DNA of 64,000 nucleotides from a virus (IMGVR_UViG_3300049174_000047:7731-71730), one strand, 5' to 3'; positions 17,016 through 44,299 are shown, counted from the first letter of the stretch. Notes: a model not told the origin generated them from the sequence alone. Program-made: numbers and translations.

Positions 17016-19503
17016 CCCGATCATCCCGGCAGGAGGCAACTGGTCGGCCGAGGCGGCCCGGCTCAAGCAGGCGGGCTTCCCCGGCCTGCCGCGTAACCCC
17101 GCCATGGCCCGTATCGAGGCCCGCCAGATCGCCGAGACCGTACAGACCCGCGGCTCGCTGACCGACCTGACCAATCGCAAGCTGGCCGCCGACATGAATC
17201 GCCGTCGGGCTTCCACCCGCGGCTCGGTGGGCGGGGGCACCATCCGGGTGGCCAGCGACCTGCAGATGGCGCTGCCGAAGATCCGGCAGCCGCTGTCGAG
17301 CCTGATGGACAAGGGCATTCCCTTCGACATCACCGACCCGAAACAGCTCATTGAATTGCGCAGATGGTGCCGTCTGTTTTATGCCACGCATGATTTGGTG
17401 CCGCTATTGGTTGATATTTACAGCAAATTCCCAGTGACCGGGATCGAGTTTTCTTCAAAAGACCCGTTGATCGAGAAATTCTATACCGAGATGTTTCTCG
17501 ACAAGCTCAATTATGAAGAGTTCCTCCCCGATGCCATCGGCCGTGAGTATTTCGTTGCCGGGGAGGTTACCACGCTGGCCCACTTCAGCGAGGAGCTGGG
17601 GGTATGGAGCAGCGAAGAGGTCCTCAATCCCGACATGGTGGCCATTTCCAAGAGCCTCTTTGTCGAGGAGGAGCGGGTGCAGCTGCTCGTCAAGGAGTTG
17701 GTGGACGCGCTGCGCTCAGGCCCCTCCGGGCACCCCGACTCCCAGGAGCGGCCCAGCGAGCGCCTGGAACGCACCTTCGAGTATCAGCAACTGCAGAAGT
17801 ACTACCCCGAGATCATCCAGGCGGCCTCCCGCGATGACGGCCTGGACATCGCCGACGCTCTGGTATCCCGTCTGGTCAACAAGGCCAGTCCGTGGGACCT
17901 GCGCGGCACCCCGCCTTTGCTGAGATCCTTCCGCACCCTGCTGATGGAGGAGTCGCTGAACTGCGCCCAGGACGCCGTCTGCGACCGGCTCTACGCCCCG
18001 ATGATCCTGGCCACCATGGGCATCGAGAACATGGGCGACGGCGAGCCCTGGATACCCAGCGCCTCCGAGCTGGACGACCTGCGCGATGATCTGCAAAGCG
18101 CCCTGGCTGCCGACTTCAAGATCCTCGTCCACAACTTCGGTGTTCAGGTCACCCCTGTTTTCGGCCGGGAAAGTGTCCCCCGTTTCGATCAGGATTACGA
18201 CCGGGTGGACGCAAAACTTATGCAGGCGTGGGGGATTGGTCAGGCTTTGATTATGGGTGGCACCGGGGCGTCGGGCACCTACGCTTCATCTGCCATTAAC
18301 CGTGAGGTCTGCGAACAGCTGATGATGGGCTTCCAAAAGAAGGTCATCAGGCACATGCGCAAACGGATGGCCGTAATTGCCGAGGCCCAGGAACACTACG
18401 ACTACGAATTGAAGGGCGGGCAACGGATTCCGCTCTACCGAGAGATTGTGGTGGAGGACCCCGAGACCGGCGAGAAGCGCATCGAGCGCGTCCCTAAGCT
18501 GCTGGTGCCTGAGGTGCACTTCGCGACCCTGAATTTGCGCGACGAGGCCACCGAGCGCAACTTCGTGATGACGCTCAAGCAGGCCGGTGTGCCGGTCTCC
18601 GACAAGACGCTGGCGATCAACATCCAGCTCGACGCCGAGCAGGAGCTGGAACGCGAGGCGCAGGAGACCGTGGACAAGGCGCTAGCCAAGGCCCAGGCGT
18701 GGAAGAAGGTTCAGGACCTCTGCGACCTGGAAGGCCTGCCGTACCCACCGGAGCTGGCGGCGCACCTGGAATCCACCCTGCAGCTGCGCCAGATGCTGCA
18801 GCAGACCAACCAGCTCGATCTGCAGACCAAGATGCTGCAGATGCAGAAGGACCAGATGACCCCGGCCGGTCAGGTGGGGGCCATCCAGCCCGGCCAGCAG
18901 CCGATGCAGGGGGTGCCTCCCGAGCAGGCACAGCAGGAGGAGCCCGACGAGCAGCAGCTCATCCAGCAGGCCCTGCAGCTGGTTCAATCGACAGAGGCCC
19001 AGTCGGTGAGCGCCAACGCCCAGGCCGAGCCACCGATGGCCTCGGGCCCCTCGTCCTCCCCGCTCACCGAGTCCAGTCAGGTCGGCACCGGGGGAGCCAC
19101 CGAGCCCTCGCGCAACCGCAGCCGTCCGGTGGAGTCCGACGAGCAGCGAGCCGGTGCCCCCAAGGCCGCCTCCCAGCGCTGGGCTGAGCGGGTGCACGGC
19201 AATCACCGCTTCGCCCGCGGCCCGTCCAGTCTGGGGCACTCCCTACACGCCAGCGAGGAGGACGTGCAGGCCGCCATCCAGCGCCGGGAGATGTACGCCC
19301 GCCATCCGGGCACCCCCTTCGTCAGTCAGCTGATCGAGGACCCCGGCTTCTGGCGCATGCTCAACGCCACCGGGGACGAGGACGCCATCCGTGCCGACTG
19401 GCCCGAGATCCGGGCCGGGAAGGCCAGCGAGTCGGGGCGGCTGTTGCAGGACTTGGTCAGCCAGTACGAGGAGGTTACGGGGGTTCAGCCGATATGGGAC
19501 TGA
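17008..19503 (+). CDS. Portal protein
   Basis: 831 aa in the head module; WCRLFY..H.LVP.L.DIYS.FP, REYF..GE and ....PLL.S.....E..L..AQ..V..R patterns; N-terminal basic leader ending RVAS. Confidence 0.75.
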   Translation: MTNPIIPAGGNWSAEAARLKQAGFPGLPRNPAMARIEARQIAETVQTRGSLTDLTNRKLAADMNRRRASTRGSVGGGTIRVASDLQMALPKIRQPLSSLMDKGIPFDITDPKQLIELRRWCRLFYATHDLVPLLVDIYSKFPVTGIEFSSKDPLIEKFYTEMFLDKLNYEEFLPDAIGREYFVAGEVTTLAHFSEELGVWSSEEVLNPDMVAISKSLFVEEERVQLLVKELVDALRSGPSGHPDSQERPSERLERTFEYQQLQKYYPEIIQAASRDDGLDIADALVSRLVNKASPWDLRGTPPLLRSFRTLLMEESLNCAQDAVCDRLYAPMILATMGIENMGDGEPWIPSASELDDLRDDLQSALAADFKILVHNFGVQVTPVFGRESVPRFDQDYDRVDAKLMQAWGIGQALIMGGTGASGTYASSAINREVCEQLMMGFQKKVIRHMRKRMAVIAEAQEHYDYELKGGQRIPLYREIVVEDPETGEKRIERVPKLLVPEVHFATLNLRDEATERNFVMTLKQAGVPVSDKTLAINIQLDAEQELEREAQETVDKALAKAQAWKKVQDLCDLEGLPYPPELAAHLESTLQLRQMLQQTNQLDLQTKMLQMQKDQMTPAGQVGAIQPGQQPMQGVPPEQAQQEEPDEQQLIQQALQLVQSTEAQSVSANAQAEPPMASGPSSSPLTESSQVGTGGATEPSRNRSRPVESDEQRAGAPKAASQRWAERVHGNHRFARGPSSLGHSLHASEEDVQAAIQRREMYARHPGTPFVSQLIEDPGFWRMLNATGDEDAIRADWPEIRAGKASESGRLLQDLVSQYEEVTGVQPIWD

Positions 19504-20111
19504 TCAATGTGGCCCGCCACAGTATCGCGGTCACCCTCGGGATCGCCGATGCAATGTGGACCCTCTTCGAGCGCGAGTACCTCGGCGGCCCCCGCCAGGG
19601 GCTGGCCGCCGAGGGGGAGTTCGACTGGTCGGGCCCCGACGATATGTGGCCCGACATCCCCTGGCCCGAGGAGCCGGTCATCGCCGACACCGAGAGCGAG
19701 CCCGAGCTGCTCGTTACCAGGCAGTGGGGACTGGTGCTGCCCAGCGGCGAGATCGCCTGGAACTGTTGGGCGGGCATCAGCTTCGGAGACCCCTTCAACC
19801 GCACGCTGATGGTTGCCAAGCTCAAGAAAACCGGCATGGATGTCGGCTTTGCCGAGGAGCAGCTGGGGGAGTGGCTCAGCAACTACGCCTGGGTGACGCG
19901 CAATGAGATCGCCACCATCGTCTACGAGGACACGGGGGGTTATGATCTGACCGATCCCCAAGTCTCTGCCCTGGACGACGCTGGTCTAGGCCTACAGCGT
20001 TGTGAAAACGAAAGTGAAAATGACCCTGGACCTGGACCCTCTACAAACGGCAACGGGCCCGATCCCGCTCCCGACCTTCACCGCGGACCTCTGGGAGGTT
20101 CAGCGCCGTGA
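19494..20111 (+). CDS. Hypothetical protein
   Basis: GC3 bias; overlaps the portal stop. Confidence 0.7.
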   Translation: MGLINVARHSIAVTLGIADAMWTLFEREYLGGPRQGLAAEGEFDWSGPDDMWPDIPWPEEPVIADTESEPELLVTRQWGLVLPSGEIAWNCWAGISFGDPFNRTLMVAKLKKTGMDVGFAEEQLGEWLSNYAWVTRNEIATIVYEDTGGYDLTDPQVSALDDAGLGLQRCENESENDPGPGPSTNGNGPDPAPDLHRGPLGGSAP

Positions 20112-20310
20112 GGTCCTCGAAGGCCTCGGCGAGATGGGCATCAACGAGTTCGACAAGCACTTCCCCCCGTGGGAGCAGCTCTCCCCTGACGACCAGGAGT
20201 CCAAGATCGCCATCGCCCGCGAGGAGCTGCGACTGCTGGACCGCGCAGGGTATCAGGTTCATAGGAAAAAAGAGCACAACACGCTGGCGGGCGACCAGGC
20301 TAAGGTCTAA
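20002..20310 (+). CDS. Hypothetical protein overlapping the upstream CDS
   Basis: Globular-looking second half (FPPWEQLSPDDQESKIAIAREELRLLDRAGY); start uncertain. Confidence 0.55.
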   Translation: MKTKVKMTLDLDPLQTATGPIPLPTFTADLWEVQRREVLEGLGEMGINEFDKHFPPWEQLSPDDQESKIAIAREELRLLDRAGYQVHRKKEHNTLAGDQAKV

Positions 20311-20417
20311 TGTGCAATTTGAAAACCTGCGGTTACGTCGATGTGTACTGGCCTCTTGGCGTGGGTTGTCATGAATGTGGCTAGCAAACACCTAGTTGAT
20401 CGAGCAGAGGTCAGCCC

Positions 20418-20687
20418 ATGATTGGTAACGGGGTACGGGTCCATTATCACGTCGAGCCAGTAGAGTCCAGCGATCAAGCAATTAGTCTGTCGGCGTATTT
20501 CCAGCGCCACGGCCAGCTGGCGTACAAGGAGAGCGACGAAGAGGTCGTAGTTCCGCTGGAATGCCCGACCCGTGAGATTGCTGCCGAGAAGGAGGCCCAG
20601 GTGCATCTGCTGCGCACGACCTGGGAGTTGTTCTGGGAGCACAGCGACCAGGGAGTCTTTGACCTCCCGGTCTACCTCGTTGACTGA
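20418..20687 (+). CDS. Hypothetical protein (89 aa)
   Basis: RBS AGAGG; complete ORF. Confidence 0.6.
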   Translation: MIGNGVRVHYHVEPVESSDQAISLSAYFQRHGQLAYKESDEEVVVPLECPTREIAAEKEAQVHLLRTTWELFWEHSDQGVFDLPVYLVD

Positions 20688-20693
20688 CCTCAA

Positions 20694-20730
20694 CCTGTAA
20701 CCGCTCGGCCGAGCCACCAGGAATAGGTGA
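20694..20730 (+). promoter_or_regulatory. Putative phage late promoter
   Basis: CCTGTA-N21-GAATAGGTGA; the downstream box lies in a hairpin ATAGGTG-ACAA-CACCTAT. Confidence 0.7.
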
Positions 20731-20754
20731 CAACACCTATCCCCGGAGGCTGTC

Positions 20755-23700
20755 ATGGCGAATGTCGGCGACTCGGCGCACACCGATCACGGTCTGGGCG
20801 TCATTACCGAGATCGACACGGTGCGCGGCCGATCCTCCTTCCGAGTGGCGGGCCGCGGGTTCAACGTCTGGGTCGATGAGACTAAGCTGCGGGTGGCCAA
20901 GGACGGCAATCCATGGGGTGCCCCCTACGACCTGCAGACCACCGTGGACTCCGGTGTCCATGAGGTCAACAAGGACAACTCGACCGTCCTGCCCTACGAC
21001 TACACCCCCCAGTTCTCGGTGGACCAGTTCCGCGCCGACCAGAACATCCAGCCCGGCGAGCAGGAGATCAACGCCGACGACCGGCTGCGCTCCTCGGACT
21101 CGCTGAGCGGCAACAGCGCCAGCCCCAACCGGCCCTACCCCGGTCCCAACCCCGACCTGTTCGCCAAGAGCGCCGGGGCCTTTGACCGTAGTCACGGTCC
21201 TTGGAGTGGTCGGCCGCAGCCTGATCGTTCTGCTATCAAGGCAATGGGTACCCAGGAACTCATTGATCTTCACGATCAAGGGATTCAGGCTCCCAACCAC
21301 ACCAATGAATTGGTGCTGCGCAGCAATACCGGCGATCACCTGGCAACCGGATGGCGTAAGCGTAGGGAGTCGGCCCGCTACGCCGAGTTCGAGGACGAGC
21401 CCTCCTACCCCGACTGGGGCTCCGACGAGTGGCACACCGACTTGCCCGACGGTCCCGAGCGCACCATGCAGCAGACCGCCAGCGCTCCCGTCCAAGAGCG
21501 TCACTACCGCCCGTCGAAGTGGGACGAGCCCGTCGATCCGCTCACCTCCGAGCTGCGGCGGCACTTTGAGCGCAACCCGCACCACCAGCTGGAAGAGGAC
21601 GATCCGGCTCGCTACTCGGCCCGCCAGGACTGGTTCGAGCGCCCGGCCGGGCTCTCCGACCGCTACGCCTACTTGGAACCCGAGGTCGATCAGGACAGCC
21701 CGGCGGCGTCCTTCAAGCGCGACCCGGTGGCCTTCATCGAGGCCGCGGCCTACTTCGGGTCCTCGCGTTACAGCGACGACGCGCTAGAGGCCCACTTCGG
21801 CAGCTACTCCGACCTACTGGGTGCCGACAAGCTGATGAAGGTCGGCAAGTGGTCCGACGTGCGAGAGAAGGCAATGCGGCTGCGCCGTGACGGGGCGGTG
21901 CACATCCACGACATCGACCACGACCGTATCTACGCCACCGTCCAGGGCGACCACGGCACCTACGACTGCATGATCAAGAAGGGCGGCTCGATGGGTGGCT
22001 GGGGTGGCGGCCAGTCCATCACCAACTGGTACTGCGGCTGCGACTGGGGCAACTGGGCCTTCAAGCGCCGCTACAGCTACGTCGGCCGCCTGTGCTCCCA
22101 TGCTTACGCGGCCTACCTGGACATGCAGTCCAAGCACATGAAGGCCAACCCGTCGCACTTCAAGCCCAAGAAGTACCTGCCCGGCGCGGCCTGGGGCAAG
22201 ACCGGCTCCTTCGACCGGCTGGCCGGGGTGGTCGAGGACTACAAGAAGTTCTGCGAGGACAACGACAAGGGCCCCGAGCCCTCGTCGGTGGCCGACTTCG
22301 TGTCCATCTCCAACGAGGACCTCTCCGACGAGGACGTGGAGAAGCTCTACGACTACATCCATGAGAACCCGGCGATGGTGCCCGAGCGCGAGTTCGACGT
22401 GCCCTACACCTTCGATGAGGACAAGGTCTACAAGCAGTCCGACCTGCTGCGCACCCAGCCCCGAGGGCTGGTGCCCAACCTGCGTCAGGTGCCCCCGCCC
22501 GAGGACTCCGAGTTCGTGGATGTCACCAAGGACGAGCGCAAAACGACCGGGCCCGACCAGATCGTGCACTTTTCCAACCTGCAGCGTCAGATCGTGGCGG
22601 CCCTGCACCGCACCGCTGCCGGGGGAGAGCCCGCGGTCCAGGCACCATCGCCGCCCACCTATTCGACCTATCAAGACCGCGGTCGCACGGTGTACCGCCA
22701 GAACGGGACCAACAAGGGCTACGTCTTGGAGAACGACCCGAACAGTCCTAACCGCGGGCAGATCCGGGAGGTTGACTTCACCACCCAAGCGCCCGCCGGT
22801 ACCGAGCTTCAGGGAAACACACCGGGCTACCAGGGTGGTCAGTACGTCTTTCGGCCGGGCGGGGCGACCTGGACCCGGCCCGATGCGGGCAAGGACCCCA
22901 ATTTGTGGCGTAGCACCGATCCGAACAACACTCGGGGCTATCAGGTCAACTCGCAAAATCCCGCCGATGTCCGCGGGGTCAATTTCCAAGAAACGGCTCC
23001 ATGGGCACCGAACACCATCCAGGGACCGGAGGGGAACAAGTACATCTTCCACACCGGGGTTGGCACGGTTGGTGGTGACGAGTTCGGCCAGTTCCTGCAG
23101 AGCAGGCCTGATGTAAGCGGCAACTTCGGGCAACAGGGCCCGGCTCCCGGTCCCAACGGGCCTCAGGTCCCTCCCGGCGTCCCGCCTATCGGTGGCGGCC
23201 CCAACGACAAGGGCCCTGGTGCTCCCTATTCGGCGGCGGGCCTGCCCCGGATGCTGACCCAGCCGGGCCAGGGTGTCCCGGCCGGGGGCAACGTCGATTG
23301 GGCGGTCAACCCGATCCTCAATCCCGAGGCGGGGGCCACCCCGTTCAACCGCGATCCCAAGGCCTACGGCGGTGGCGAGGAGAACTACAACCGCATGATG
23401 GGCATCACCAACCGCCCCGGTGCCACCGGCACGGGCGCGGGGGAGAAGGGTTCGGTGGGCACCGGCCAGGGCTTCGGCGGTGCCGGGTTCCAGCAGGGCG
23501 GCGAGTGGTTGCGCAGCCGGGAATCCACCCCCATCGACGTGGCCCACGGCTACAGCAACCAGGGCGGCTACCAGATCAACCAGGGCGAGACCCTCACTGA
23601 CTTGTCTCACCGGATGGGCGAGAGCGGCAACCTGAACAATCTGCGCTACATCGACCCCACCACGGGCAAGCTCAGCGACATCACCGACCCCAACAACATC

Positions 23701-25959: not shown

Positions 25960-25960
25960 T

Positions 25961-28810
25961 GTGAGAGGCGATGACTGGGGCGACCCCCACTTCCGTTCCT
26001 GCGACGAGCTGCCGGGAGACCGTCGCGAGCTGACGGCCGCGCATATCAAGTGGGCCGAATCCGACGCGGCCGAGGAGCAGCTGATCCGGCCCTATCGCGG
26101 GCGCTACGGGGCAATCCAGCGGGGCTTCCAGTTCAAGCCGGGCTTTCTCTACACCCAGGTGCGGGCCATCGCCGCTCGGATCAACCAGAACTTCGACGGG
26201 TGGCCGTCGGGTGAACTAAAGAAAAGCTATAGAACTTTTCTAGGTAAACCGTGCTTCGTCAATCATCAAAATTTTGACCCCGCCAAGGCCCGCGGCAAGG
26301 TCATCGCGGCCCGCTACATCGAGAACGGCCGGGACAAGTACGTGGACGTGATTCAGGAGATCGACGCCCAGCGCTTCCCCAAGCTGGCCCATGAGATCAA
26401 GACCGGCGGGATGGACTCGGTCTCGATGGGTGTCGAGGCGGGCTTCACGATCTGCAGTTATTGCGGAAACAAAGCGGTGGACGAGGACGACTTCTGCTCC
26501 CACGTCAAGTACCACAAGGGCCGTATCCTGCCGCGCATCAACGCCAAGACCGGGGCCCATGAGGACGTGCTGGTCTACGAGAAGTGCCACAAATTGGGGT
26601 TCTTCGAGTTGAGCTTCGTGTTCGACCCCGCCGACGAGACTGCCGTGGTCAGCCGGGTGCTCTCGGCCAGCCGCACCGCCCAGGCCCCGGCCGAGCAGAT
26701 CCCCGGTGAGATGCAGACCTACTCCGACTTCCCCTACGTCGATATGCCGAGCCCGATGATGCCTCAAGCCAGCCGACGCCGCGCTTACGGCGAGGCCGAG
26801 CAGCCCGACGATGACTGTTTCTGCACCTGTGAGGACCACCATCACGACGATCCCGAGTGGGAAGAGCAGTGGCGCGACACCGGGGAAGAGGCTCCCGAGG
26901 ACATCGACACTCTGCGCGACGACGACGAGTCCGAGGGCGAGGACTCATTTAAACACTACGTCGAGAGCCCTAAAGAGTTGAGAGGTCCTGATCTCGATCA
27001 GACCAAGCGCCTCGACCGAGCACAAGAGCAGGAAGGACTCGACGCGGATCGTCGCGTGGAGGACGTGGAAAACGTAGAAGGAGTTCCCATGCCCCGCACC
27101 GGACGCCGCACTCGAAGGAGCACCCGTATGAGCACGCTGGTCGATCCCCGCACCGGGCGGCGCTTCGTCGCCGCCGACGAGCTGCCTCCCGAGGTGCTGC
27201 AGGCCTTGATGGCTGGCGGCGGGGGTGGTGGTGCCCCCATGCCGATGGACGACGGCGGGGGCGGCTTCCCGCCTCCCGATGACGGTGGTTTCCCGCCCGA
27301 GGACGAGGGTGACTTCCCGCCGTCCGACGAGGGTGACGAGTTCCCCGAGGACGAGTTCGGCGGGGAGGACGAGGACGACTACGGCGACGAGGGCGACGAG
27401 GGCGACGAGGGTGAAGAGTCCGACGAGGACCTCATCGAGGAGGCCGAGGAGGACCTAGAGCAGGCCGAAGGCGAGGAGGGCTACGGCGAGGAAGAGGAAT
27501 ACCCCGAAGAGGGTGAGGACGAGTTCGGCGGCGAGGAGTACCCCGAGGACGAGGAAGAGGAAGGCCCGCCGCCAGAGTTTTTGGCCCGCCGTCATGGAAA
27601 TCGCCGCACTTCCTACCAGAAGAAGAGAAGGGCTCGGAAAGGAACGCCGATGAGTCTCGCAGCTCGCAACCGTGTGGCCAGCGTTGGCCGTCGCCGCCAC
27701 TACGCCGACGACTCGGGCCACTTCGACAGTGGGCCCTATGGCGAAGATAACCAGGGCCAGCAGGAGGACGTGTTCATCAGCCAGACGCCGGGCACCGAGC
27801 CGGTGGCAGACCCGACGCCGGGCGACGGCACGATCTCCAACACCGAGAAGAACCTGGTGGCCCGCATCCAGGCCCGCAACAACGAGCAGCGCCGCGACCT
27901 GATCGCCTACGAGCAGATCACCGGGCGGCGCATCCGCGCCGACGGGCACGCCACCGAGAACCCCGACGAGGTCAACCCGACCGTCAACACCGGGCCGGGC
28001 GGCGAGGAGCAGACCGGCGACGACTTCGAGTCGCTGGCCCTGGACAACGAGGAGACCCAGCCCAAGAACGCCTCGCTGGCTCCCTTCAAGGCCTTCAACA
28101 CCTGGCTGTACCAGACCACCGGCCGCCAGGCCCGCCAGCACGGCAACGCCACGTTCCTGCGCCGCCAGGCGGCCCGGTTCTGCCAGGCCTCCGGTTATTC
28201 AGTCGAGTCGCTGTTCCCGGCCATGGGGATGGTGTTGCGCGAGATCCGCGCCAATCAAGGGAGGACCGCCATGCGCCGGTACGCCGACGACAAGCTGGAT
28301 GTTGCGGCCCCGCAGGACCGCATCGACGTAGAGCAGCCGGTATCGGACACCACCGACGCCGACGCGCAGGCGAGTCAGTTCGGCCTGAGTGACTTCGGCG
28401 GCAACGCCGGGGACAACCTGGCCGATCCCAATCTCGACACCGACTCCCAGATCTGGGCTCCCGGAGAGAAGCCAGCTGGGTTCAAGAGTTCCAACCGCAA
28501 GGCTGACGGCATCACCGCGGTGCGTTACGCGGAGGCCTTCATCGAGGCGGGGCTGGCCCCCAACACTCCCGAGGAGAAATGGAAGCTCGCGGGGCTGGCA
28601 CAGACGATGCGCCACGGCACCATCGTGGATCGCATCCGATTGCTGGACGCCGTGAACACCGTTCACCAAGCCAGCAGACGCCGCACCGCAGGAGTCAGCG
28701 GTGCCGGTCGTGGTATTCCACAGGGCTTCGGTGGCCGTCAGTTGACCGCGGGAGTCGTGCGGGAGGCCGCAAACGACATCGCAACAGACAGCGCCATCTT
28801 CCTCAAGTAG
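25961..28810 (+). CDS. Prohead (capsid maturation) protease fused to scaffold
   Basis: F.GKP.FVNH (His), DSVSMG (Ser), C..C...C.H zinc insert, FFELSFV.DPAD.TA; long acidic/basic scaffold-like C-terminus; lies upstream of decoration and capsid genes. Confidence 0.85.
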   Translation: MRGDDWGDPHFRSCDELPGDRRELTAAHIKWAESDAAEEQLIRPYRGRYGAIQRGFQFKPGFLYTQVRAIAARINQNFDGWPSGELKKSYRTFLGKPCFVNHQNFDPAKARGKVIAARYIENGRDKYVDVIQEIDAQRFPKLAHEIKTGGMDSVSMGVEAGFTICSYCGNKAVDEDDFCSHVKYHKGRILPRINAKTGAHEDVLVYEKCHKLGFFELSFVFDPADETAVVSRVLSASRTAQAPAEQIPGEMQTYSDFPYVDMPSPMMPQASRRRAYGEAEQPDDDCFCTCEDHHHDDPEWEEQWRDTGEEAPEDIDTLRDDDESEGEDSFKHYVESPKELRGPDLDQTKRLDRAQEQEGLDADRRVEDVENVEGVPMPRTGRRTRRSTRMSTLVDPRTGRRFVAADELPPEVLQALMAGGGGGGAPMPMDDGGGGFPPPDDGGFPPEDEGDFPPSDEGDEFPEDEFGGEDEDDYGDEGDEGDEGEESDEDLIEEAEEDLEQAEGEEGYGEEEEYPEEGEDEFGGEEYPEDEEEEGPPPEFLARRHGNRRTSYQKKRRARKGTPMSLAARNRVASVGRRRHYADDSGHFDSGPYGEDNQGQQEDVFISQTPGTEPVADPTPGDGTISNTEKNLVARIQARNNEQRRDLIAYEQITGRRIRADGHATENPDEVNPTVNTGPGGEEQTGDDFESLALDNEETQPKNASLAPFKAFNTWLYQTTGRQARQHGNATFLRRQAARFCQASGYSVESLFPAMGMVLREIRANQGRTAMRRYADDKLDVAAPQDRIDVEQPVSDTTDADAQASQFGLSDFGGNAGDNLADPNLDTDSQIWAPGEKPAGFKSSNRKADGITAVRYAEAFIEAGLAPNTPEEKWKLAGLAQTMRHGTIVDRIRLLDAVNTVHQASRRRTAGVSGAGRGIPQGFGGRQLTAGVVREAANDIATDSAIFLK

Positions 28811-28840: not shown

Positions 28841-29374
28841 ATGTTTAGGCCACCCATCTCCAACCCGGCGCTCAAGCGTTCGATCCGACCGATCTACGCG
28901 CAGCACCAGGCGACGACATACGGGGGTTTCTTGGACCCTGCATGGGCCCGTTCGTTCGACATCTACCCCGGCACTGTGATGTGCCGACTCAACAAGGAGA
29001 TCTTCACCCCCTTCACCGGGGCCGGGAACCAGAAGCCTTTCGGGCTCTCTGCGCTCTTCCTGGCACCCCAGCTCGGGGTGGATGAATCCACGGCCACCGG
29101 CACCAACCTCTTCACGGTCTGGGTCGGCGGCGAGCAGGCGGTATTCGAGATCCTGGCCCCCGGCTTCGACTCGACGGCCAACTGGTCCTCGGCCAACGTC
29201 ACCGACGGCGGTTTCCAGCTGTTGACGGCGACCAACCAGGGCCTGCTCACCCCAACCGGCGCGAACAACAACAACGCCATCGCCGAGCTGATCGACGTGC
29301 CGACCACCGACAAGATCCTCATTCGACTGAATCGCTACAACTTCGCGACCTCAGTCGCCGTGGGACCGCTGTAA
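28841..29374 (+). CDS. Capsid decoration/stabilising protein
   Basis: Between protease and major capsid; RBS AAAGGAGG; beta-rich 177 aa. Confidence 0.65.
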   Translation: MFRPPISNPALKRSIRPIYAQHQATTYGGFLDPAWARSFDIYPGTVMCRLNKEIFTPFTGAGNQKPFGLSALFLAPQLGVDESTATGTNLFTVWVGGEQAVFEILAPGFDSTANWSSANVTDGGFQLLTATNQGLLTPTGANNNNAIAELIDVPTTDKILIRLNRYNFATSVAVGPL

Positions 29375-29390
29375 GGAGGCATTGAACATC

Positions 29391-30398
29391 ATGACTACGG
29401 CAATCCCGCAGGCCATCGGTTCCGGCCTGCAGCGCATCGCCCGCAACTCGGAGGACTACGTCGCCGACATCCAGCGGGTCATGGACCGGATGGGAGGCCA
29501 GAAGCTCAGCCATCGGCAGAAGCAAGCCAAATTGGCGCACATTCTGGGCGACCGTCAGAACGGAATGATGCGGCTCGGACAAAGCATGATCGGGCCAATT
29601 CAGCTCCAATTGCGTTACCAAGGTATTTTGAGAAACGTATTGCTGGAAGATACCCTCACTCCCGGCGTACCCATTCAGTACGATGTGCTGGATGACCTTG
29701 GTCAGGCCTACATGCTCCACGGCGACGAGGGTGAAATCAAAATCACGCCGTTTGAAGGCAAGCGCGTGGAGGTGCAATTGTTCCGAATTGCATCATTCCC
29801 GAAAATTAAAAAGGAGGATTTGTACTACCTCCGCAGTAATATCGTGGAATACACACAAGACATGACGAAGCAGGCCATTATGCGGCAGGAAGATAGCCGC
29901 CTGGTGACCTTGCTCGAAGTGTCGGCGGCTAATTACCGCCTGGTGGATACGACCGCCGTTCCTGGCACCGGCTCACTTCCCAACGAAATCACAATCGGTG
30001 GGTCCACGCTGATGCCGAGCGACCTCTACACCGCCGTGACCTTCACGGATCAGCGGATGTTGGACTCCTCGCGGTTGCTCTGCAATCCGCAAGAATACCG
30101 CGACTTTTACCGCTGGGAAATTGCGACCACGGGCTGGGCATTTAAAGACAGCGTGGTGGCCGGTGAAAAGATCGTGCAATTCGGCGAGTTCCAAATCGGC
30201 AAGAGCATCATCATCCCCCGCGGGACGGTGTACCTGACCCCCGAGCCGACCTTCCTCGGCGTATTCCCGGTCATGTATTCCTTGGATGTCGAGGAAAACA
30301 ACCAGGTGGAGCAATTCCACAAAGGCTGGGTTATGGACGAATTGGTTGGAATGGTGGTCCTAAACCCCCGCGGCATAATTATCCTGCGGAAGGCGTAA
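29391..30398 (+). CDS. Major capsid protein (HK97 fold)
   Basis: 335 aa after the decoration gene; RBS AAGGAGG; terminal GW...E.VG.VVLNPRGI motif. Confidence 0.85.
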   Translation: MTTAIPQAIGSGLQRIARNSEDYVADIQRVMDRMGGQKLSHRQKQAKLAHILGDRQNGMMRLGQSMIGPIQLQLRYQGILRNVLLEDTLTPGVPIQYDVLDDLGQAYMLHGDEGEIKITPFEGKRVEVQLFRIASFPKIKKEDLYYLRSNIVEYTQDMTKQAIMRQEDSRLVTLLEVSAANYRLVDTTAVPGTGSLPNEITIGGSTLMPSDLYTAVTFTDQRMLDSSRLLCNPQEYRDFYRWEIATTGWAFKDSVVAGEKIVQFGEFQIGKSIIIPRGTVYLTPEPTFLGVFPVMYSLDVEENNQVEQFHKGWVMDELVGMVVLNPRGIIILRKA

Positions 30399-33337: not shown

Positions 33338-33346
33338 ATGCCCGGA

Positions 33347-33382: not shown

Positions 33383-33424
33383 AGCCGCTACCCCTCGAAC
33401 GCGGCCTTACCGAAGAAGGACACC

Positions 33425-34036: not shown

Positions 34037-34046
34037 GGAGGCCATC

Positions 34047-34594: not shown

Positions 34595-34609
34595 TAAGGA
34601 GTCCCTCCC

Positions 34610-35533: not shown

Positions 35534-35575
35534 GCCTGGGAGGTCCCGAGCACCGAGGAGCGATAGGAGGCGGCG

Positions 35576-37216: not shown

Positions 37217-37225
37217 GGAGGTGTG

Positions 37226-38341: not shown

Positions 38342-38350
38342 GGAGATCCC

Positions 38351-38575
38351 ATGTCCTACCCCCTCAACATCCCCACACCCACCGGCCTGGCCCCGCTTCG
38401 ACATCAGACCGCCCTGGTCCAGGCGGCACAGTACCTCGAAGGAAGTGGCCCCACCATGGCTGCCAACCCCGACAACTCCCCCCTGGACGGCATCGCCTCG
38501 GGTGTCGCTGCCGGTGTCTCCACGGGAACCGTCACGCTCAAGCACGGTCAGAAGGGTCCTGCGAAACACGGATGA
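38351..38575 (+). CDS. Small hypothetical protein
   Basis: RBS AAGGAG. Confidence 0.65.
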   Translation: MSYPLNIPTPTGLAPLRHQTALVQAAQYLEGSGPTMAANPDNSPLDGIASGVAAGVSTGTVTLKHGQKGPAKHG

Positions 38576-39603: not shown

Positions 39604-40223
39604 TGGCAGTCATCAAGCTGGTCGAGGACTACGCGGTCTCCCAATTGCGCAAGGACGTGCGCGATGCGCTCACCCTGGCCGGGGAGCAGTCGGTGCTGCT
39701 GCAGCTGTTCCACTCCACCGACAAGGACACCACGCCCTGCCCGCAGTGCGGCGACGACATCTACCAGTCCCCCGAGGCCGACTGCTCCTCCTGCTACGGC
39801 ACCATGTTCGAGGGCGGGGTGCGCTCGGCCTGCCGGATCTGGGCCATGTACACCGACAAGCAGGCCCCCGAGCAGCGCGGCCCCCGCGGCGAGTTCGAGC
39901 CCGACGCCCGCAGCGTGCAGTTCGAGGCCTTCCCGATCATCGTGGAGCACGACGTGCTGGTGCGGGTGCGGCACTGGAACGCCGACGGCACCGTCAAGGA
40001 GCTAGAGGGTTTCTACATGTTGTCTGTCCCCGAGCGCCGCAGCCTGCGCACCGGCACCCGGTTCGGTCAGTATGGCTGGGACGTGGTGGGCCAGAAGGCC
40101 CAGTTGGGTGAGCTGCCGCCCACTCACAAGATGATCACCACCTACCCCATCCTGGGCAAGGTCTTTGATGAGGCTCCCCAGCTGCCGCCGGGAATCCCCC
40201 CGCCGATTCCGGGGTACCGATGA
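39603..40223 (+). CDS. Head closure/stopper-like neck protein with zinc insert
   Basis: CPQC...CSSC; neck-region synteny. Confidence 0.55.
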   Translation: MAVIKLVEDYAVSQLRKDVRDALTLAGEQSVLLQLFHSTDKDTTPCPQCGDDIYQSPEADCSSCYGTMFEGGVRSACRIWAMYTDKQAPEQRGPRGEFEPDARSVQFEAFPIIVEHDVLVRVRHWNADGTVKELEGFYMLSVPERRSLRTGTRFGQYGWDVVGQKAQLGELPPTHKMITTYPILGKVFDEAPQLPPGIPPPIPGYR

Positions 40224-40681
40224 AGGTCCCCGTCCCCCAGCACCTGGCCCAGAAGGTCTCCAACGACGCGGTGGCCAACGCCCGCAATGCCATGAAGGGC
40301 TACGGGTGGAGTGACCGTGCTTTACAAGCGCTACAGCCCATGCCGGGCGAGGGCTCGGTGGGAATCAAGACCACGCTGAAGTACCTGATGTACCAGGAGC
40401 GTGGCACCAAGCCCTACCTGATGTGGTGGGTGAACGGGCGAACCATCCCCCTGTCCTGCTCCCAAGGGGATGGTCCGCACTTCCGGCGCGGCGGCCACGT
40501 CGGCGAGCCCGGCTACGTTGACATCCCCCACCAGGGCAAGGTCTGGCGCACCGAGCGCTGGAAGCACCCCGGCGTGCAGGCCCGCAACTTCATGCGCGAC
40601 GGCCTGAGCCAGGCCATCGAGGACAACAAGCCCGTCATCCAGCAGTGGGTCCGCGGGCTGATCACAGGAGGTGGGCAATGA
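40220..40681 (+). CDS. Neck/tail completion protein (HK97 gp10-like)
   Basis: Y..YQE.GT.P and HPG.QARNFMRD.L motifs. Confidence 0.65.
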   Translation: MKVPVPQHLAQKVSNDAVANARNAMKGYGWSDRALQALQPMPGEGSVGIKTTLKYLMYQERGTKPYLMWWVNGRTIPLSCSQGDGPHFRRGGHVGEPGYVDIPHQGKVWRTERWKHPGVQARNFMRDGLSQAIEDNKPVIQQWVRGLITGGGQ

Positions 40682-41523
40682 CCCAGCCCGTCTACGGTCC
40701 CGACATGTTCGCGATGGACCTGGACCTGCCCGATCCCGAGACCGTGCTCAACCCCGCCATGCCCCGCGCTTGGAGCGCGGGGGGCGTGATTGAAAGCGTC
40801 AAGACCGCCGTCGTGATGGGCGTGCGCGATGCCTTCCGCAGGACCACCATGCAGTCCTCGCAGGACGAGGGCGAGCCCTTCCACGTCAGCATCGAGTATC
40901 CGGTCAAGGAGACCGAGTACCCCGGCATCTGGGTGCAGTTCGCCATCGAGCAGCTGCAGCGGGCCGGGCTGTCCATGGAGCACTGGACCAAGGACGACCG
41001 CGGGGAGTGGGGCCCCATCCAGACCTGGGCCTTCAACGGCCGGATCACCCTGACCATCGCCGCGCTCACCTCCAAGGACCGCGACCGCCTGGCCGACACC
41101 GTGATCGCCCAGCTCGCCTTCTCCCGCCCGCCGGATCTGATCATCACCAACCCCCGCAAGGACGCCAAGCAGATGAAGGGCCTGCTGGGGACCATCAACG
41201 ACAACCCCTTCGTGCAGATGACGCTGAACACCGACATCGTCAACTCGGGCGGGGCGACGGTGACCGGGGGAACCCCGTGGGCCCAGAACATCCTGCTCTA
41301 CGAGGACAACTACTCCATCGCCTGCACCGGGCACTTCAACATCCGTTTTTCCTACGACGGTGTCTACGAGCTGCGCGAGATCCGGCAGGACCCCACCATC
41401 GAGGAGGCCGGGCTGCTCTACGACCCCAGGCAGTGGGGCTCCGAGATCGTCGTGGAGCGCACCAGGGACGCCTACCCCATCGGGCACCCCGGCCAATACA
41501 ATTCTGGGTTTGGGGCTCGGTAG
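40678..41523 (+). CDS. Tail terminator-like protein
   Basis: V.IEYP....YP.I.V and ...I.ALTS.DRDRL.D patterns; last neck gene before the sheath. Confidence 0.55.
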   Translation: MTQPVYGPDMFAMDLDLPDPETVLNPAMPRAWSAGGVIESVKTAVVMGVRDAFRRTTMQSSQDEGEPFHVSIEYPVKETEYPGIWVQFAIEQLQRAGLSMEHWTKDDRGEWGPIQTWAFNGRITLTIAALTSKDRDRLADTVIAQLAFSRPPDLIITNPRKDAKQMKGLLGTINDNPFVQMTLNTDIVNSGGATVTGGTPWAQNILLYEDNYSIACTGHFNIRFSYDGVYELREIRQDPTIEEAGLLYDPRQWGSEIVVERTRDAYPIGHPGQYNSGFGAR

Positions 41524-41587
41524 CCCAATTGGCAGAGGCCCCGGACTCAAAATCCGGTATATGTGGGTCCGAATCCCACCCGAGCTA
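41514..41587 (+). tRNA. tRNA-Leu: tRNA-Leu(CAA), short variable arm
   Basis: Acceptor GGCTCGG/CCGAGCT, D arm GCC..AATTGGCAG..GGC, anticodon stem CCGGA/TCCGG with CT-CAA-AA (41548-41550), T stem GTGGG/CCCAC; T loop TCCGAAT and CCA offset by 2 nt. Confidence 0.85.
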
Positions 41588-42064
41588 CACCAGGCCTGCC
41601 TTCTTGCGGGCCCTATGGTTGGCGATGGCTATCCGAGTGCAAATCTTGCACTGACGAAAGGTCTTGCCGTCACCTCTGCGGCAATGCCTGGTGTTCTCCG
41701 GGGTGTAGTCATGACCCTGCGGGCACTGGGTTTTGACTGTCTGCCAATGGGTGCCGCGCCGTACTTCATCAAGGGCATTTTCGGAGTGGGTGTCGTAGCG
41801 CAGGTTGCTCAGGTGACAGTTCAGCTTGTTCCCGTCGTTGTGACAGACCTCCATGCCTTCCGGGCACTCGCCCAGGAAGGTCCGGGCCATCAGAACGTGC
41901 ACCCTCACCATCGTCAGCTGACCGTCTTTGGTCAGGTTCACCCGGAGATACTCCCCTCGCACGCTGGGTTGGAGTAGGCGCGGCTCGTTGCGTTTGAGCG
42001 ACAGGATGTCGGCCGTGTGGCTGATCCGATACCCCGGCCAGCCAGGGATTTCGTACCAGATCAT
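41585..42064 (-). CDS. Free-standing NUMOD4-HNH homing endonuclease
   Basis: W.EIPG.PGY.IS, RVH.LMA..FLG, VCHNDGN..NC.LSNLRYDT.SEN, C-terminal CPQGH...C..C. Confidence 0.9.
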   Translation of the reverse strand: MIWYEIPGWPGYRISHTADILSLKRNEPRLLQPSVRGEYLRVNLTKDGQLTMVRVHVLMARTFLGECPEGMEVCHNDGNKLNCHLSNLRYDTHSENALDEVRRGTHWQTVKTQCPQGHDYTPENTRHCRRGDGKTFRQCKICTRIAIANHRARKKAGLV

Positions 42065-42098
42065 GTAAAACGCCTCTCAGCCGCCCAAGAAGAGATAG
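42062..42098 (+). promoter_or_regulatory. Putative phage late promoter (sheath operon)
   Basis: CATGTA-N21-GAAGAGATAG; the upstream box overlaps the HNH start codon. Confidence 0.65.
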
Positions 42099-42162
42099 AA
42101 GGACCTGTTCCAGATGATAGTGCATCACGGGAACGGATCGTAACCGCTGGCAGGAGGCTGAA

Positions 42163-43782
42163 ATGTCCTCACCCACACAGATCGCGCAAGAGGCCATCGA
42201 CTTCAGTCACTACATGAGCCCAGGGGTGTATACGCAGAGCTTTGGCGGTCCCCAGCTCGCGGTGAATACCAGCCTCCCCACGGCCGTCGGCATCATCGGG
42301 CAGACCATCGGGTACGAGACCTTCGTCCAGACGGTCCAGATCAACCCCGACGTGGACGACACCACCCCCTCGCTCACCCAGACGCTGGCGCAGCAGGGCA
42401 TCGACATCTCCAACCCGTGGGTCTCCGACGCCACCATCAACCCGACCTTCGTGGTGGCCGAGCCCAACACCGGGGCCAAATACGTGTTCGGCACCGACTA
42501 CACCATCGTCTGTGTGGGCGGCACCTCGGGCGAGCAGGACGCGCTCTACGCCGTGCAGCGGGTGCTACCGGCCAACGGTGGGCACCTGGACGAGGGCGAC
42601 TATATCCAGATCCGCTATCAGTACACCAACGAGCAGTACTACCAGCCCTACATCTTCTACGACTACGCCGACGTGGTGGCCGCCTATGGCCCGCCGTTCG
42701 ACACCAAGACCGGGGTGATCATCTCCGGGCTCACGCTGGCTTCCCACTTCGCCTTCCTCAACGGGGCCTACCAGGTGGTGGCGGTGGCCGTGAAGTCCAG
42801 CGCGGGGGTGGGACACGCCACCGTGGGCGACTACGGCGGGGCCCTGGAACTGCTCAAGGACCAGCCCATGGTCGCGGTGATCGTCACCGACTCCGGGGAG
42901 CAGCCGCTGCACCAGCTCGTTCAGGAGCACGTCGATCAGCAGAGCGCGGCACGCCATGAGCGCCGGGCCATCGTGGCCCTGGACGGCACCGTGGCCCCCG
43001 CGGCCTCGGCCCAGCGCATCATCGACGCCCAGGCGCTCTCCGACCGGCGCATCTGTCTGGTGTGCCCCAACAGCTTCAACTACTTCAGCCCCGAGCTGAA
43101 CCAGACCATCCTGCTGGGCGGGCAGTACATGGCCGCCAGCCTGGCCGGGGTGACGGTGTCGATGTCCTACGCCCAGCCGCTGACCCGCAAGACGGTGACC
43201 GGGTGGATCGGCATCGGCGAGCTGGAACGCGAGGGGCAGAAGAACTTGGAGTCCCAGAACGGGCTGCTCGTCGTGGAGAAAACCCGCACCCAGAAGATCC
43301 AGGTTCGCCACGGCGTAACCACCGACCCCACCGACATGCTCAGCCGGGAGTGGTCGATCATCGGGCAGCAGGACGCCATGTGCTACCGGCTCCGGGACTA
43401 CCTGGAATCCGACAATTTGATCGGCCAGCCTATTTATCCCTTCACACTGATAAATGTAAAGGGTAGTGCCGACGCCGCATTGCAGAGTCTTATCCGGGAC
43501 GGTTTGATTGTCGATTACACCGCATTGAAAGTGCGACAATTGGCGACCAATCCCGACGTGCTGGAAGTAAGTTTCGCCTGGCTCCCCGCATTCCCGCTGA
43601 ATTACATTGTCGTGACATTCTCGGTGAGTCTCACAACCGGCAATTTGACTTCGACAACCGGCACCGGGGCCAACGTCGCCAACGTGACCTCGGCCAGCCA
43701 GACCTCCACCCAGGTGGGCATCCCGTCCAGCTCGGTGATCAACGACTTCGGCGGCCCGAGCAACACACTGCAATCGCTGTAA
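42163..43782 (+). CDS. Tail sheath protein
   Basis: Y..PGVY, Y.....A.G.PF, ER.AIV, LTRK...G, G....E......VRHG.TT, RD.L....IG, ..PLNYI.V motifs. Confidence 0.9.
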   Translation: MSSPTQIAQEAIDFSHYMSPGVYTQSFGGPQLAVNTSLPTAVGIIGQTIGYETFVQTVQINPDVDDTTPSLTQTLAQQGIDISNPWVSDATINPTFVVAEPNTGAKYVFGTDYTIVCVGGTSGEQDALYAVQRVLPANGGHLDEGDYIQIRYQYTNEQYYQPYIFYDYADVVAAYGPPFDTKTGVIISGLTLASHFAFLNGAYQVVAVAVKSSAGVGHATVGDYGGALELLKDQPMVAVIVTDSGEQPLHQLVQEHVDQQSAARHERRAIVALDGTVAPAASAQRIIDAQALSDRRICLVCPNSFNYFSPELNQTILLGGQYMAASLAGVTVSMSYAQPLTRKTVTGWIGIGELEREGQKNLESQNGLLVVEKTRTQKIQVRHGVTTDPTDMLSREWSIIGQQDAMCYRLRDYLESDNLIGQPIYPFTLINVKGSADAALQSLIRDGLIVDYTALKVRQLATNPDVLEVSFAWLPAFPLNYIVVTFSVSLTTGNLTSTTGTGANVANVTSASQTSTQVGIPSSSVINDFGGPSNTLQSL

Positions 43783-43831
43783 CAACCATGGGTCAGGCCG
43801 GTCCTGTCCCTAGTCAAGGAGGTGAGCACCG

Positions 43832-44299
43832 ATGGAGTCACAGACGAGGATCGCGGGCTCAGGATTTACCACGATGCTCTTCCAGAACAAGAGGCTGGCC
43901 TATCTACAGGTCATCCAAGACACCGCTCCCACCGCGGTGGCACAGGCACAAGCGGTCCAACCGATAGACGAATCCGTGCCTCTGGAAATTGTTACGGCAA
44001 TGGCGGTCGGAGTCGGAAGTCTCCGCTGTACATTCTACGAATTGTGGAATTTCCCGGTATGGTCAACTCTGCCTGGTTTGCAGGGCACATTTAATTTGCT
44101 CGACGTGCTCAAAAGGCAGGTATCTTTGGGCACAATTACCATGCAGAAAATAATCAAATCACCGTCCGGGATAATGCGTGCCCGTGTTTATCACAACGTG
44201 GTGATCACCGACATGGACGAGGGCGAGAACGTCACCATCGGGTCGATGACCATCCCGCGTGCGCTGACCTTCCAGTACTGCTACACGACCCCGGTCTAA
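43832..44299 (+). CDS. Tail tube protein
   Basis: 155 aa directly after the sheath; I...I.SP.G..R..VYH..VI...D.GE pattern. Confidence 0.8.
   Translation: MESQTRIAGSGFTTMLFQNKRLAYLQVIQDTAPTAVAQAQAVQPIDESVPLEIVTAMAVGVGSLRCTFYELWNFPVWSTLPGLQGTFNLLDVLKRQVSLGTITMQKIIKSPSGIMRARVYHNVVITDMDEGENVTIGSMTIPRALTFQYCYTTPV

Follow-up and report, generated by a model that had tools for sequence, protein, structure and literature searches.

The free-standing Seg and Mob endonucleases of phage T4 bring about intronless homing and marker exclusion; a target with silent polymorphism is immune, and co-conversion extends to the markers on either side. In yeast mitochondria, exon diversity and co-conversion gradients adjoin mobile introns (PMC5378118), and co-conversion tracts are also reported for the cox1 intron of angiosperms (PMC3192709). 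Actinophage portal proteins are known to harbour inteins of several independent groups; the passages of a recent preprint on which we draw do not mention synonymous, co-conversion or GC-content effects (bioRxiv 10.1101/2025.01.02.630785). A different process, xenogeneic silencing of A/T-rich DNA by Lsr2, operates in high-GC actinobacteria (PMC10066036).

The stretch of viral DNA analysed here (64 000 nucleotides, 'the window') is from an uncultured GC-rich relative of Cluster C mycobacteriophages. Its portal, protease, capsid, sheath and tube genes contain real patches of A/T-ending silent codons (Table 1). The patches look like lineage-specific scars of recombination and homing-endonuclease activity rather than conserved functional sites; the cause is not proven.

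The patches resemble the co-conversion left by homing introns and inteins: silent sites are altered over short tracts where highly conserved coding sequence surrounds insertion sites. No donor can be identified, just as in yeast, and the same two candidates apply, an imported template or mutagenic repair. Unlike the co-conversion systems, most patches here are in element-free alleles, one of about nine lies on known insertion sites, and the shift to A/T is strong and occurs in structural genes of a phage virion. Known actinobacteriophage inteins have a counterpart in the cultured relative Cane17, which has a LAGLIDADG intein at portal site f; the difference is that uncultured relatives here give a single portal family six sites, of which three fall within 190 nt. 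A free-standing HNH/NUMOD4 gene wedged between conserved genes of the window recalls the Seg and Mob enzymes of T4, although relative G002 has the gene twice and lacks the sheath patch. The patches also resemble Lsr2 targets, being A/T-rich islands of 100-300 bp in an actinophage-like genome of high GC; unlike silenced DNA, they fall within late genes that are essential to what is probably a lytic myovirus, without positional conservation, on a contig without a phage Lsr2.

Table 1. Genes, patches of A/T-ending codons and empty intein sites in the window (positions from its first nucleotide)
Feature	Position	Strand	Remarks
Similar patch, 1713-aa protein	12070..12130	+	13/20 A/T-ending codons; outside any G001 nucleotide match
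Portal gene	17008..19503	+	matches annotated portals of Cluster C, Gordonia and Rhodococcus phages
Portal patch 1	17323..17553	+	A/T third positions (AT3) 0.37; flanks 0.09-0.12
Empty intein site a	17368	+	W120/C121; occupied in L284, L285, L255
Empty intein site b	17455	+	S149/S150; occupied in L255; LAGLIDADG_3 match
Empty intein site c	17557	+	before A184; occupied in L257; Intein_splicing, Hint_2, LAGLIDADG_3
Empty intein site d	17785	+	Y259/Q260; occupied in L279; no patch
Empty intein site e	17980	+	V324/C325; occupied in L272; weak Vint match; no patch
Portal patch 2	18118..18330	+	AT3 0.33; also in G001, stronger in G003
Empty intein site f	18526	+	A506/T507; in Cane17, L258, L259, L272, L279; LAGLIDADG/Hint Pfam matches, alignment
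Similar mid-gene patch, 1734-aa protein	21217..21319	+	13/20 A/T-ending codons
Prohead protease/scaffold-type gene	25961..28810	+	E3 and RedWattleHog homologues annotated prohead or capsid maturation protease
Protease patch 1	26178..26293	+	up to 14/20 A/T-ending codons; includes AGA, CTA
Protease patch 2	26936..27110	+	GC3 0.50-0.62; common to G001, G002, G003
Major capsid gene	29382..30398	+	GC3 0.73; 12 AATT
Capsid patch 1	29562..29700	+	
Capsid patch 2	29730..29900	+	GC 0.42-0.46
Capsid 3' patches	30090..30366	+	GC3 0.60-0.73
tRNA-Leu(CAA)	41514..41588	+	sole tRNA of 71.7-kb contig (about 48% complete)
Free-standing homing-type endonuclease gene	41585..42064	-	HNH_3 + NUMOD4 (Pfam 1.7e-13, 3.3e-05)
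Tail sheath gene	42163..43782	+	
Sheath C-terminal patch	43380..43650	+	GC3 0.50-0.65; flanks 0.95-1.0
Tail tube gene	43832..44299	+	GC3 0.68
Tube patch	43890..44180	+	GC3 0.45-0.65
Similar patch, 1720-aa tail-region protein	57525..57585	+	13/20 A/T-ending codons

A preliminary description of this DNA gave G+C counts per 60 nt at five sites, and a recount returned exactly the same values (25, 22, 26, 26 and 27); over the window the mean is 39.4, with an SD of 4.1 and a minimum of 19. Amino-acid composition also contributes much to such 60-nt minima (GC2 of the patches is 0.14-0.42). About one-third of the low-GC stretches of the window fall at gene starts or between genes, and in three the amino acids alone account for the low GC. 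The 12 AATT words reported in the capsid gene are indeed present, where its own codons predict 4.6 (P<0.001, synonymous shuffles), and the five genes together hold 30 against 19-22 from local block shuffles (z 2.9-4.0). A/T-ending codons are clustered beyond synonymous shuffles in a variance test at P<0.001 for the portal, protease and sheath genes and at P<0.01 for the capsid and tube genes; their clustering in the cement gene is not significant by this test. Comparable patches exist in non-hallmark genes too (Table 1). The silent changes were also said to run from G/C to A/T, and so they mostly do. Compared with the relatives' consensus, 193 of about 254 changes in eight patches are in this direction, for the most part transitions (C>T 83, plus 17 CTG>TTG; G>A 59; C>A 23; G>T 11), and C>G and G>C together account for 51.

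Patches are absent from the cultured relatives Alice, E3, Skog and RedWattleHog, all four of which encode the same amino acids at these places with GC3 of 0.9-1.0; whole-gene GC3 in these phages is 0.88-0.93, against the much lower capsid and tube values of the window. Uncultured relatives do have patches, of varying strength. When the landscape of A/T third positions is compared between the window and its relatives, rho is 0.46 for G001, 0.21 for G002, 0.15 for G003, 0.07 for G007 and 0.04-0.10 for cultured phages; non-patchy phages compared with one another give a baseline of 0.23-0.28. This correlation decays with relatedness and therefore points to contingent history, not conserved architecture; in the orthologue comparison, distant relatives do not have their patches at the positions seen here (rho ~0.07).

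The link to homing endonucleases is direct for portal patch 1 only. Across the portal genes of 46 high-GC loci, segments with AT3 of at least 45% fall almost only in the two regions that are patched in the window. Relatives have inteins at six sites of the portal gene, which makes it an intein hot spot, and three of these sites (a, b and c) fall inside portal patch 1 or at its edge. Close relatives often have an intein at site a; from the pattern of coverage we infer occupation in about seven protein clusters. Its inserts are in-frame and stop-free, with Cys1 and an N/C junction, and a Pfam search with the site-a insert gave no match. Inserts at sites b to e have 58-61% GC, lower than their loci. 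Two occupied alleles have A/T-rich tracts next to the intein: directly 3' of the site-a intein of L284, 8 of 12 codons are A/T-ending, as are 7 of 12 in the C-extein flank at site b of L255, in genes with AT3 of 0.08-0.13. L255 has a further patch at its empty site f, where the window has none. Such flanks are strong in 2 (perhaps 3) of 12 intein junctions, and the rest are at background. No insertion site was found inside portal patch 2 in 64 loci and 120 protein clusters. An origin of portal patch 1 from the intein-bearing L284 or L285 is not supported, since identity to the window in the patch (0.71-0.74) is no higher than in the flanks. That three of six intein sites are in or beside patches has a rough binomial P of about 0.02-0.13, and the overlap could be explained by a common preference for conserved sequence.

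Homing endonuclease genes exist in the window (HNH_3 + NUMOD4) and in the family, as LAGLIDADG inteins and HNH genes of relatives. The HNH/NUMOD4 gene sits just upstream of the sheath gene, and homologues occupy the corresponding position in G002 (two copies), L178, L215 and L216; in relatives, endonuclease-type genes also adjoin the portal and capsid genes. Searches of 28-80 loci per gene, together with protein searches, found no inserts at the protease, capsid, sheath and tube patches. Escape from homing nucleases, one of the explanations first offered, has some support for portal patch 1 only, from the three intein sites there and the HNH gene of the window.

The sheath patch has sharp edges, with GC3 falling from 0.95-1.0 to 0.5 and then going back up. 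The segment is A/T-rich in L178, L186, L192 and L198 and not in G002, L180 or the cultured phages, so that within one clade the patch is present in L178 and lacking in G002, where the segment is unpatched despite the two HNH genes. Sharp breakpoints in composition with presence and absence among relatives are as expected of mosaic import. The A/T states are, however, partly common to two clades site by site, and selection could be an alternative source of these. Protease patch 1 spans the invariant H102 (26264-26266), which is probably catalytic; it is partly common to L094 (G005) and G003 and absent from G001 and G002. It has Leu (not Ile) codons and rare codons in common with lower-GC lineages. 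Along the capsid gene the nearest neighbour alternates between L006, L005, L014 and others in a fine mosaic. An A/T-rich segment of 98 nt (29610-29707, in capsid patch 1) matches G001 with an identity of at least 95%, although the sequence on both sides has diverged, and the top identity for capsid patch 2 is 0.84-0.87 among about 52 relatives.

The range of GC in the family, about 40-71%, and these fine mosaic relationships make recombination with a lower-GC relative plausible; donors with a weaker GC bias therefore exist in principle. The sharp edges add to the case for this part of the preliminary description. Two observations are against it. No donor was found among 50-80 relatives per gene (top patch identity 0.75-0.87), low-GC lineages are never clearly nearest to the patches, and a metagenome scan gave no close relative; a donor outside this limited sampling is possible. 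The codon signature also differs: A- and T-ending 4-fold codons are 1:1 in the window and AAA is 43%, whereas in the sampled low-GC lineages T-ending codons are far above A-ending ones and AAA is low.

Selection on the DNA itself has been proposed in two forms. Patches may be selected A/T-rich elements at which a host nucleoid protein (e.g. Lsr2) binds or nucleates, for silencing or recruitment, or some other duplex-level signal. This is rather improbable, even though AATT, a word with a narrow minor groove, is commoner than in shuffles that keep codons and positions, two clades have an A/T-rich sheath segment despite turnover of its silent sites, and patches are where amino acids already lower GC, the cheapest place for an A/T island. 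Many mycobacteriophages do need host Lsr2 (PMC10066036), but this source gives no binding map, and cultured relatives growing on Lsr2-bearing hosts have no patches. The positions are conserved only as far as close relatives. Phage-encoded Lsr2 has reportedly been found; the domain (PF11774) is absent from the contig, from patchy G006 and G007 and from G008, and was seen only in non-patchy G009. The original proposal of silencer sites has no support here. Alternatively, pure escape recoding, i.e. diversifying selection on core silent sites to depart from the sequence common to relatives and so evade CRISPR spacers or endonucleases without a conversion tract, would move a GC3-saturated gene in the sole direction open to it, towards A/T. 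It would account for patches coinciding with the segments where patchless relatives are most alike in nucleotides (codon identity 0.63-0.81) and for A/T positions that differ between lineages within one region. We consider it quite unlikely: C<->G changes, which would make the sequence differ as well, show no concentration in the capsid patches, half of the codons are altered over 200-300 nt, far beyond need, and lineages partly agree on A/T states site by site.

Translational or RNA-level selection, through ribosome-slowing rare codons, tRNA-matched codons or unstructured A/U-rich mRNA, is very unlikely. In its favour, the patched genes encode abundant, oligomeric proteins, 34% of the Leu codons of the capsid and tube genes are TTG against 11% elsewhere, the A-ending GAA, AAA and CAA rise most strongly in these two genes, and the tRNA-Leu of the contig reads TTG. 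But patchy relatives have 0-1 tRNA (G006 none, G007, 96% complete, one) against 31 in the non-patchy Cluster C phage G010, the abundant cement protein has no patch, large non-hallmark proteins are patched too, and no Rfam element was found. The remark that highly expressed genes usually show the opposite bias is a fair one, and adaptation to phage tRNAs was rejected as its explanation, only the one tRNA being present in this incomplete contig. Conserved clusters of rare codons for folding were likewise rejected, as cultured relatives do not have them and the correlation falls to baseline in more distant phages. Local mutation without recombination, either clustered cytosine deamination of transient ssDNA or relaxed selection for G/C-ending codons in constrained segments, fits the excess of GC>AT transitions and the rise of A/T-ending codons with conservation, seen in this lineage only (t = 5). 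It is nonetheless distinctly improbable given the sharp edges, the many C>A transversions (11 in the tube gene) and the intermixing of C>T and G>A, with no strand or left/right polarity in any of the eight patches; nor is low GC at positions 1-2 generally tied to A/T at position 3, the correlation being positive. A chimeric assembly of strains differing in GC is scarcely credible. The contig is a metagenome assembly, and relatives G001 and G005 share one sample (3300047160), but many assemblies made independently have such patches, none is identical to a co-occurring contig (maximum 0.96 over 90 nt), and conserved residues and reading frames are intact throughout.

The explanation we prefer, tentatively and with a confidence somewhat short of even, is that the patches are scars of gene conversion or repair in conserved cores, partly seeded by homing endonucleases. 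In tracts of 60-300 nt, recombinational repair would have swapped or re-mutated silent sites. The patches lie in the most conserved parts of the virion genes, which may be the sole places where diverged relatives can still recombine, and inteins and free-standing homing endonucleases would target those same parts. With silent sites of the genome about 90% G/C, a tract could be driven towards A/T by copying from a relative with a weaker GC bias, by repair with the usual AT-biased error spectrum or by selection for endonuclease-resistant silent variants, and would afterwards drift towards G/C again. The lineage specificity of the patches, the decay of their landscape with phylogenetic distance, the recurring hot regions, the coincidence of the portal hot region with intein sites and the endonuclease genes are observed; an origin of the patches in double-strand breaks or gene conversion, and the route taken to A/T, we infer. 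Against scars of this kind, patches of 200-300 nt exceed what an endonuclease site needs.

A wider possibility, which we regard as unlikely, is that silent recoding against the genome's GC bias is a general footprint of conflict with homing endonucleases and inteins in phages, A/T-rich in GC-rich genomes and G/C-rich in AT-rich ones. If this is true, cut sites would be mappable from composition alone, and the capsid, sheath, tube and protease patches would mark the targets of unrecognised endonucleases, including the HNH enzyme beside the sheath gene.

The 71.7-kb contig, a viral metagenome record of 65.7% G+C of which the window makes up 64 kb, is distantly related to the Cluster C mycobacteriophages (Bixzunavirus) and to myoviruses of Gordonia and Rhodococcus. 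Protein identity to phage Alice is ~84% for the capsid, ~52% for the portal and ~48% for the sheath. Patches, here meaning short stretches of silent codons ending in A or T, interrupt five of the structural genes. The five 60-nt G+C counts of the preliminary description all proved exact on recount, against a mean across the window of 39.4 (SD 4.1), with the caveats that second codon positions poor in GC account for much of each 60-nt minimum, that about one-third of the low-GC stretches in the window are just gene starts or spacers and that three are purely amino-acid driven. The patch observation stands and exceeds chance. A/T-ending codons are more clustered than in synonymous shuffles in the portal, protease and sheath genes (P<0.001) and in the capsid and tube genes (P<0.01); those of the cement gene showed no clustering in this test. 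Whole-gene GC3 is 0.73 for the capsid and 0.68 for the tube, compared with 0.88-0.93 in the cultured relatives Alice, E3, Skog and RedWattleHog. The excess of AATT claimed for the capsid gene is also borne out (12 observed, 4.6 expected from its own codons), and AATT pooled over the five genes occurs 30 times versus 19-22 in shuffles kept within blocks of 30 or 60 codons. The codons enriched are GAA, AAA, CAA, TTG, TCA, GCA and GGA; T-ending ones rise less. Silent C>T and G>A recoding, as originally proposed, describes most but not all of the changes: measured against the relatives' consensus, the eight main patches hold 193 GC>AT and ~10 AT>GC changes but also 51 C<->G changes. Patches of a similar kind are found mid-gene in three very large non-hallmark proteins of the window.

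At the very codons where the window's GC3 falls to 0.3-0.6, the cultured relatives encode the same amino acids with a GC3 of 0.9-1.0, as codon alignments show. Many uncultured relatives are found in IMG/VR, spanning ~40-71% G+C, and the closest four genomes (G001, G005, G002 and G003) are heavily diverged at silent sites, with four-fold-site identity of 0.46-0.63 versus a random expectation of 0.32-0.39. G001 and G005 derive from a single sample (IMG 3300047160). G001 shares both portal patches, which are stronger in G003 (GC3 0.25-0.5), the second protease patch is common to G001-G003 and the first is found only in G005 and G003. The sheath C-terminal patch, whose edges are very sharp in the window, recurs in the IMG/VR loci L178, L186, L192 and L198 (67-82% protein identity) and is missing from G002, L180 and every cultured phage compared. 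Site-by-site sharing of A/T states in this patch is somewhat above chance; codon identity among its bearers is only ~0.5, so a recently shared mobile cassette is rejected. In G007, a 96%-complete relative, patchiness extends all through the genome. A metagenome scan for close relatives, meant for a presence/absence test, gave a best match of 78% amino-acid identity. For the portal, a relative with 96% identity (P0003) is known. Sheath homologues also vary by an inserted domain at window 42340-42400 (sheath aa ~56-80), from ~300 nt up to ~500 aa in size (database proteins P0243-P0245) and unconnected with the patches. The capsid/protease family (loci L005-L177) spans ~40-71% G+C, yet capsid protein identity is at least 72%, and capsid GC3 falls far under that of the flanks in several lineages (L020, L025, L073-L082).

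The preliminary description had suggested that patch positions be compared between orthologues, and correlation of A/T third-position profiles over all shared genes reveals no conserved architecture. The rho value for the window is 0.46 with G001, 0.21 with G002, 0.15 with G003, 0.07 with the patchy but distant G007 and 0.04-0.10 with cultured phages; the baseline among non-patchy phages is 0.23-0.28. This decay with distance means that the landscape is passed on among close relatives and lost beyond them, which fits contingent events followed by decay and speaks against binding sites or folding pauses at conserved positions.

Coordinates of the structural genes, portal patches, intein sites of relatives (all empty here) and neighbouring genes, in window positions
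Feature	Position	Strand	Remarks
Portal gene	17008-19503		
Portal patch 1	17323-17553		
Intein site a	17368		inside portal patch 1; insert without clear Pfam match of its own
Intein site b	17455		inside portal patch 1
Intein site c	17557		4 nt past end of portal patch 1
Intein site d	17785		no patch in window; insert without clear Pfam match of its own
Intein site e	17980		no patch in window; only a weak Hint-type (Vint) match
Portal patch 2	18118-18330		
Intein site f	18526		no patch in window
Prohead protease gene	25961-28810		
Cement protein gene	28841-29374		Pfam PF23968
Major capsid gene	29382-30398		
tRNA-Leu gene	41514-41588		only tRNA gene
HNH_3/NUMOD4 endonuclease gene	41585-42064	minus	between tRNA-Leu and sheath gene
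Sheath gene	42163-43782		
Tube gene	43832-44299		

In this phage family, inteins concentrate in the portal gene, a hot spot with at least six distinct sites, three of them within 190 nt. The cultured relative Cane17 has a LAGLIDADG intein in its portal gene, and 64 portal loci from IMG/VR show in-frame, stop-free inserts at six sites, most of which give Hint, intein-splicing or LAGLIDADG Pfam matches. The site-a insert of L284 possesses Cys1 and a terminal Asn followed by Cys. Inserts are borne by L219, L255, L257, L258, L259, L272, L279, L284 and L285, with two-intein alleles in L255 (a and b), L272 (e and f) and L279 (d and f). In a large protein collection with more than 100 portal clusters, where occupancy was inferred from alignment coverage, site a is occupied in ~7 clusters, d in 7, b in 2 and f in 1, and no cluster is interrupted inside portal patch 2. 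The window's own portal gene has no intein. Inteins in actinophage portal proteins had been described before (bioRxiv 10.1101/2025.01.02.630785).

Escape from homing nucleases, one of the explanations first put forward, draws its support from sites a, b and c in or beside portal patch 1. A/T codons are densest around sites a and b, and in 46 high-GC portal loci A/T third positions reach at least 45% almost only at 17338-17518 and 18118-18298, the window's two patches. An A/T-rich tract directly follows the intein at site a of L284 (8 of 12 codons) and site b of L255 (7 of 12), the gene background being 0.08-0.13; ordinary flanks are seen at 10 of the 12 intein junctions, and L255 is also patched at site f, which is empty there. 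Half of the six sites lie in or beside patches that occupy about one-fifth of the portal's conserved core. This overlap is no more than suggestive; conserved sequence may simply be favoured by inteins and patches alike. Against homing elements as a general cause, the fetched loci contain no inteins or introns at any of the other patches (portal patch 2, protease, capsid, sheath and tube). A search for longer capsid proteins, itself weak evidence, gave no insertion, one with the protease N-domain gave none at the patch, and an exhaustive sheath search gave only the known N-terminal insertion domain and nothing at the patch. The patches are also longer than an endonuclease site needs. In L149, a ~1135-nt insert, probably another intein, splits the protease N-terminal domain at a position homologous to ~26600, where the window has no patch.

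Free-standing endonuclease genes are also present. The HNH_3/NUMOD4 gene shares 4 nt with the 3' end of the tRNA gene and points away from the sheath gene. Homologues occupy the same place in G002, L178, L215 and L216; G002 carries two tandem copies (L093 1426-2330) yet lacks the sheath patch, a further limit on the homing-element link. HNH-like genes adjoin the portal genes of several relatives. Another gene occurs sporadically 3' of the capsid gene (L001, L004, L005, L013, L016, L023, L027, L031, L047, L056-L061), is absent in the window and G001, and is annotated as an HNH endonuclease in Alice and as a Holliday junction resolvase in RedWattleHog. In L178, whose sheath patch is the strongest among the relatives, an extra 187-aa ORF (1938-2501) without a Pfam match lies between sheath and tube, genes separated by 20-50 nt in the window and most relatives. 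Pfam detects no endonuclease domain in this ORF or in the post-capsid gene of Alice.

Recombination with a lower-GC relative was another early suggestion, and it is plausible. An A/T-rich tract of 98 nt in the capsid gene (29610-29707) is almost identical to that of G001 between diverged flanks and the nearest neighbour switches repeatedly along the capsid gene, so short exchanges do occur. The protease patch has a Leu-for-Ile replacement and the rare codons AGA, CTA, ACT and TTT in common with lower-GC lineages. However, no low-GC donor emerged from sliding nearest-neighbour scans of ~52 relatives for the capsid, 77 for the protease and 28 for sheath/tube, the best identities inside patches being 0.75-0.87. 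The sampled low-GC lineages also differ in codon signature, as they favour T-ending four-fold codons and avoid AAA whereas the window does not.

Silencing by Lsr2 or a phage equivalent had also been envisaged. The phage-encoded form fails, being absent from the contig and from patchy genomes and present only in the non-patchy uncultured relative G009 (an Lsr2-domain protein, PF11774, E 4.5e-13, at G009:C1:42560-42709, minus strand). Binding of the patches by a host nucleoid protein such as Lsr2 may occur but draws no support from the sequence, and the present data do not favour it. Translation-based explanations are disfavoured. Adaptation to phage tRNAs is rejected on tRNA counts, the contig having only tRNA-Leu(CAA), the patchy G006 and G007 none and one, and the non-patchy Cluster C genome G010 31. 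Near-complete uncultured relatives (G006, G007, G009) have 0-1 tRNA genes against the 31 of cultured G010, so the tRNA island is a Cluster C speciality within the family. An Rfam search returned tRNA and no other known RNA family. Low GC at codon positions 1-2 does not drive A/T at position 3, the correlation being opposite in sign; with positions 1-2 controlled, third positions are more often A/T where the protein is more conserved, a trend of this lineage that cultured relatives lack. A resection or deamination signature is likewise rejected, as C>T and G>A are interleaved in the eight patches without left/right or strand polarity.

The best-supported reading, which we hold tentatively at somewhat short of an even chance, sees in the patches lineage-specific scars that recombinational repair left in the most conserved segments. 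Diverged relatives would recombine in these segments, and homing endonucleases would be drawn to them. The shift to A/T could stem from a less GC-biased template, from AT-biased repair or from selection of resistant silent variants. The endonuclease link has direct, circumstantial support for portal patch 1 only. The closest published analogues are the gradients of co-conversion and silent-site diversity next to mobile introns, for which donors were likewise not found (PMC5378118), and the finding adds a further case to a known kind of process. Silent patches running against the codon bias may possibly map endonuclease targets in general.

Local clusters of A/T-rich codons in GC-rich phage genes need be neither regulatory sites nor signs of recent foreign origin. 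Were a host nucleoid protein to bind the patches, they would represent a new kind of intragenic control element. If instead they are scars of endonuclease action or gene conversion, they would offer a cheap, sequence-only locator of selfish nucleases and recombination at work in uncultured phages, and the most conserved virion genes would be the main arena of that conflict.
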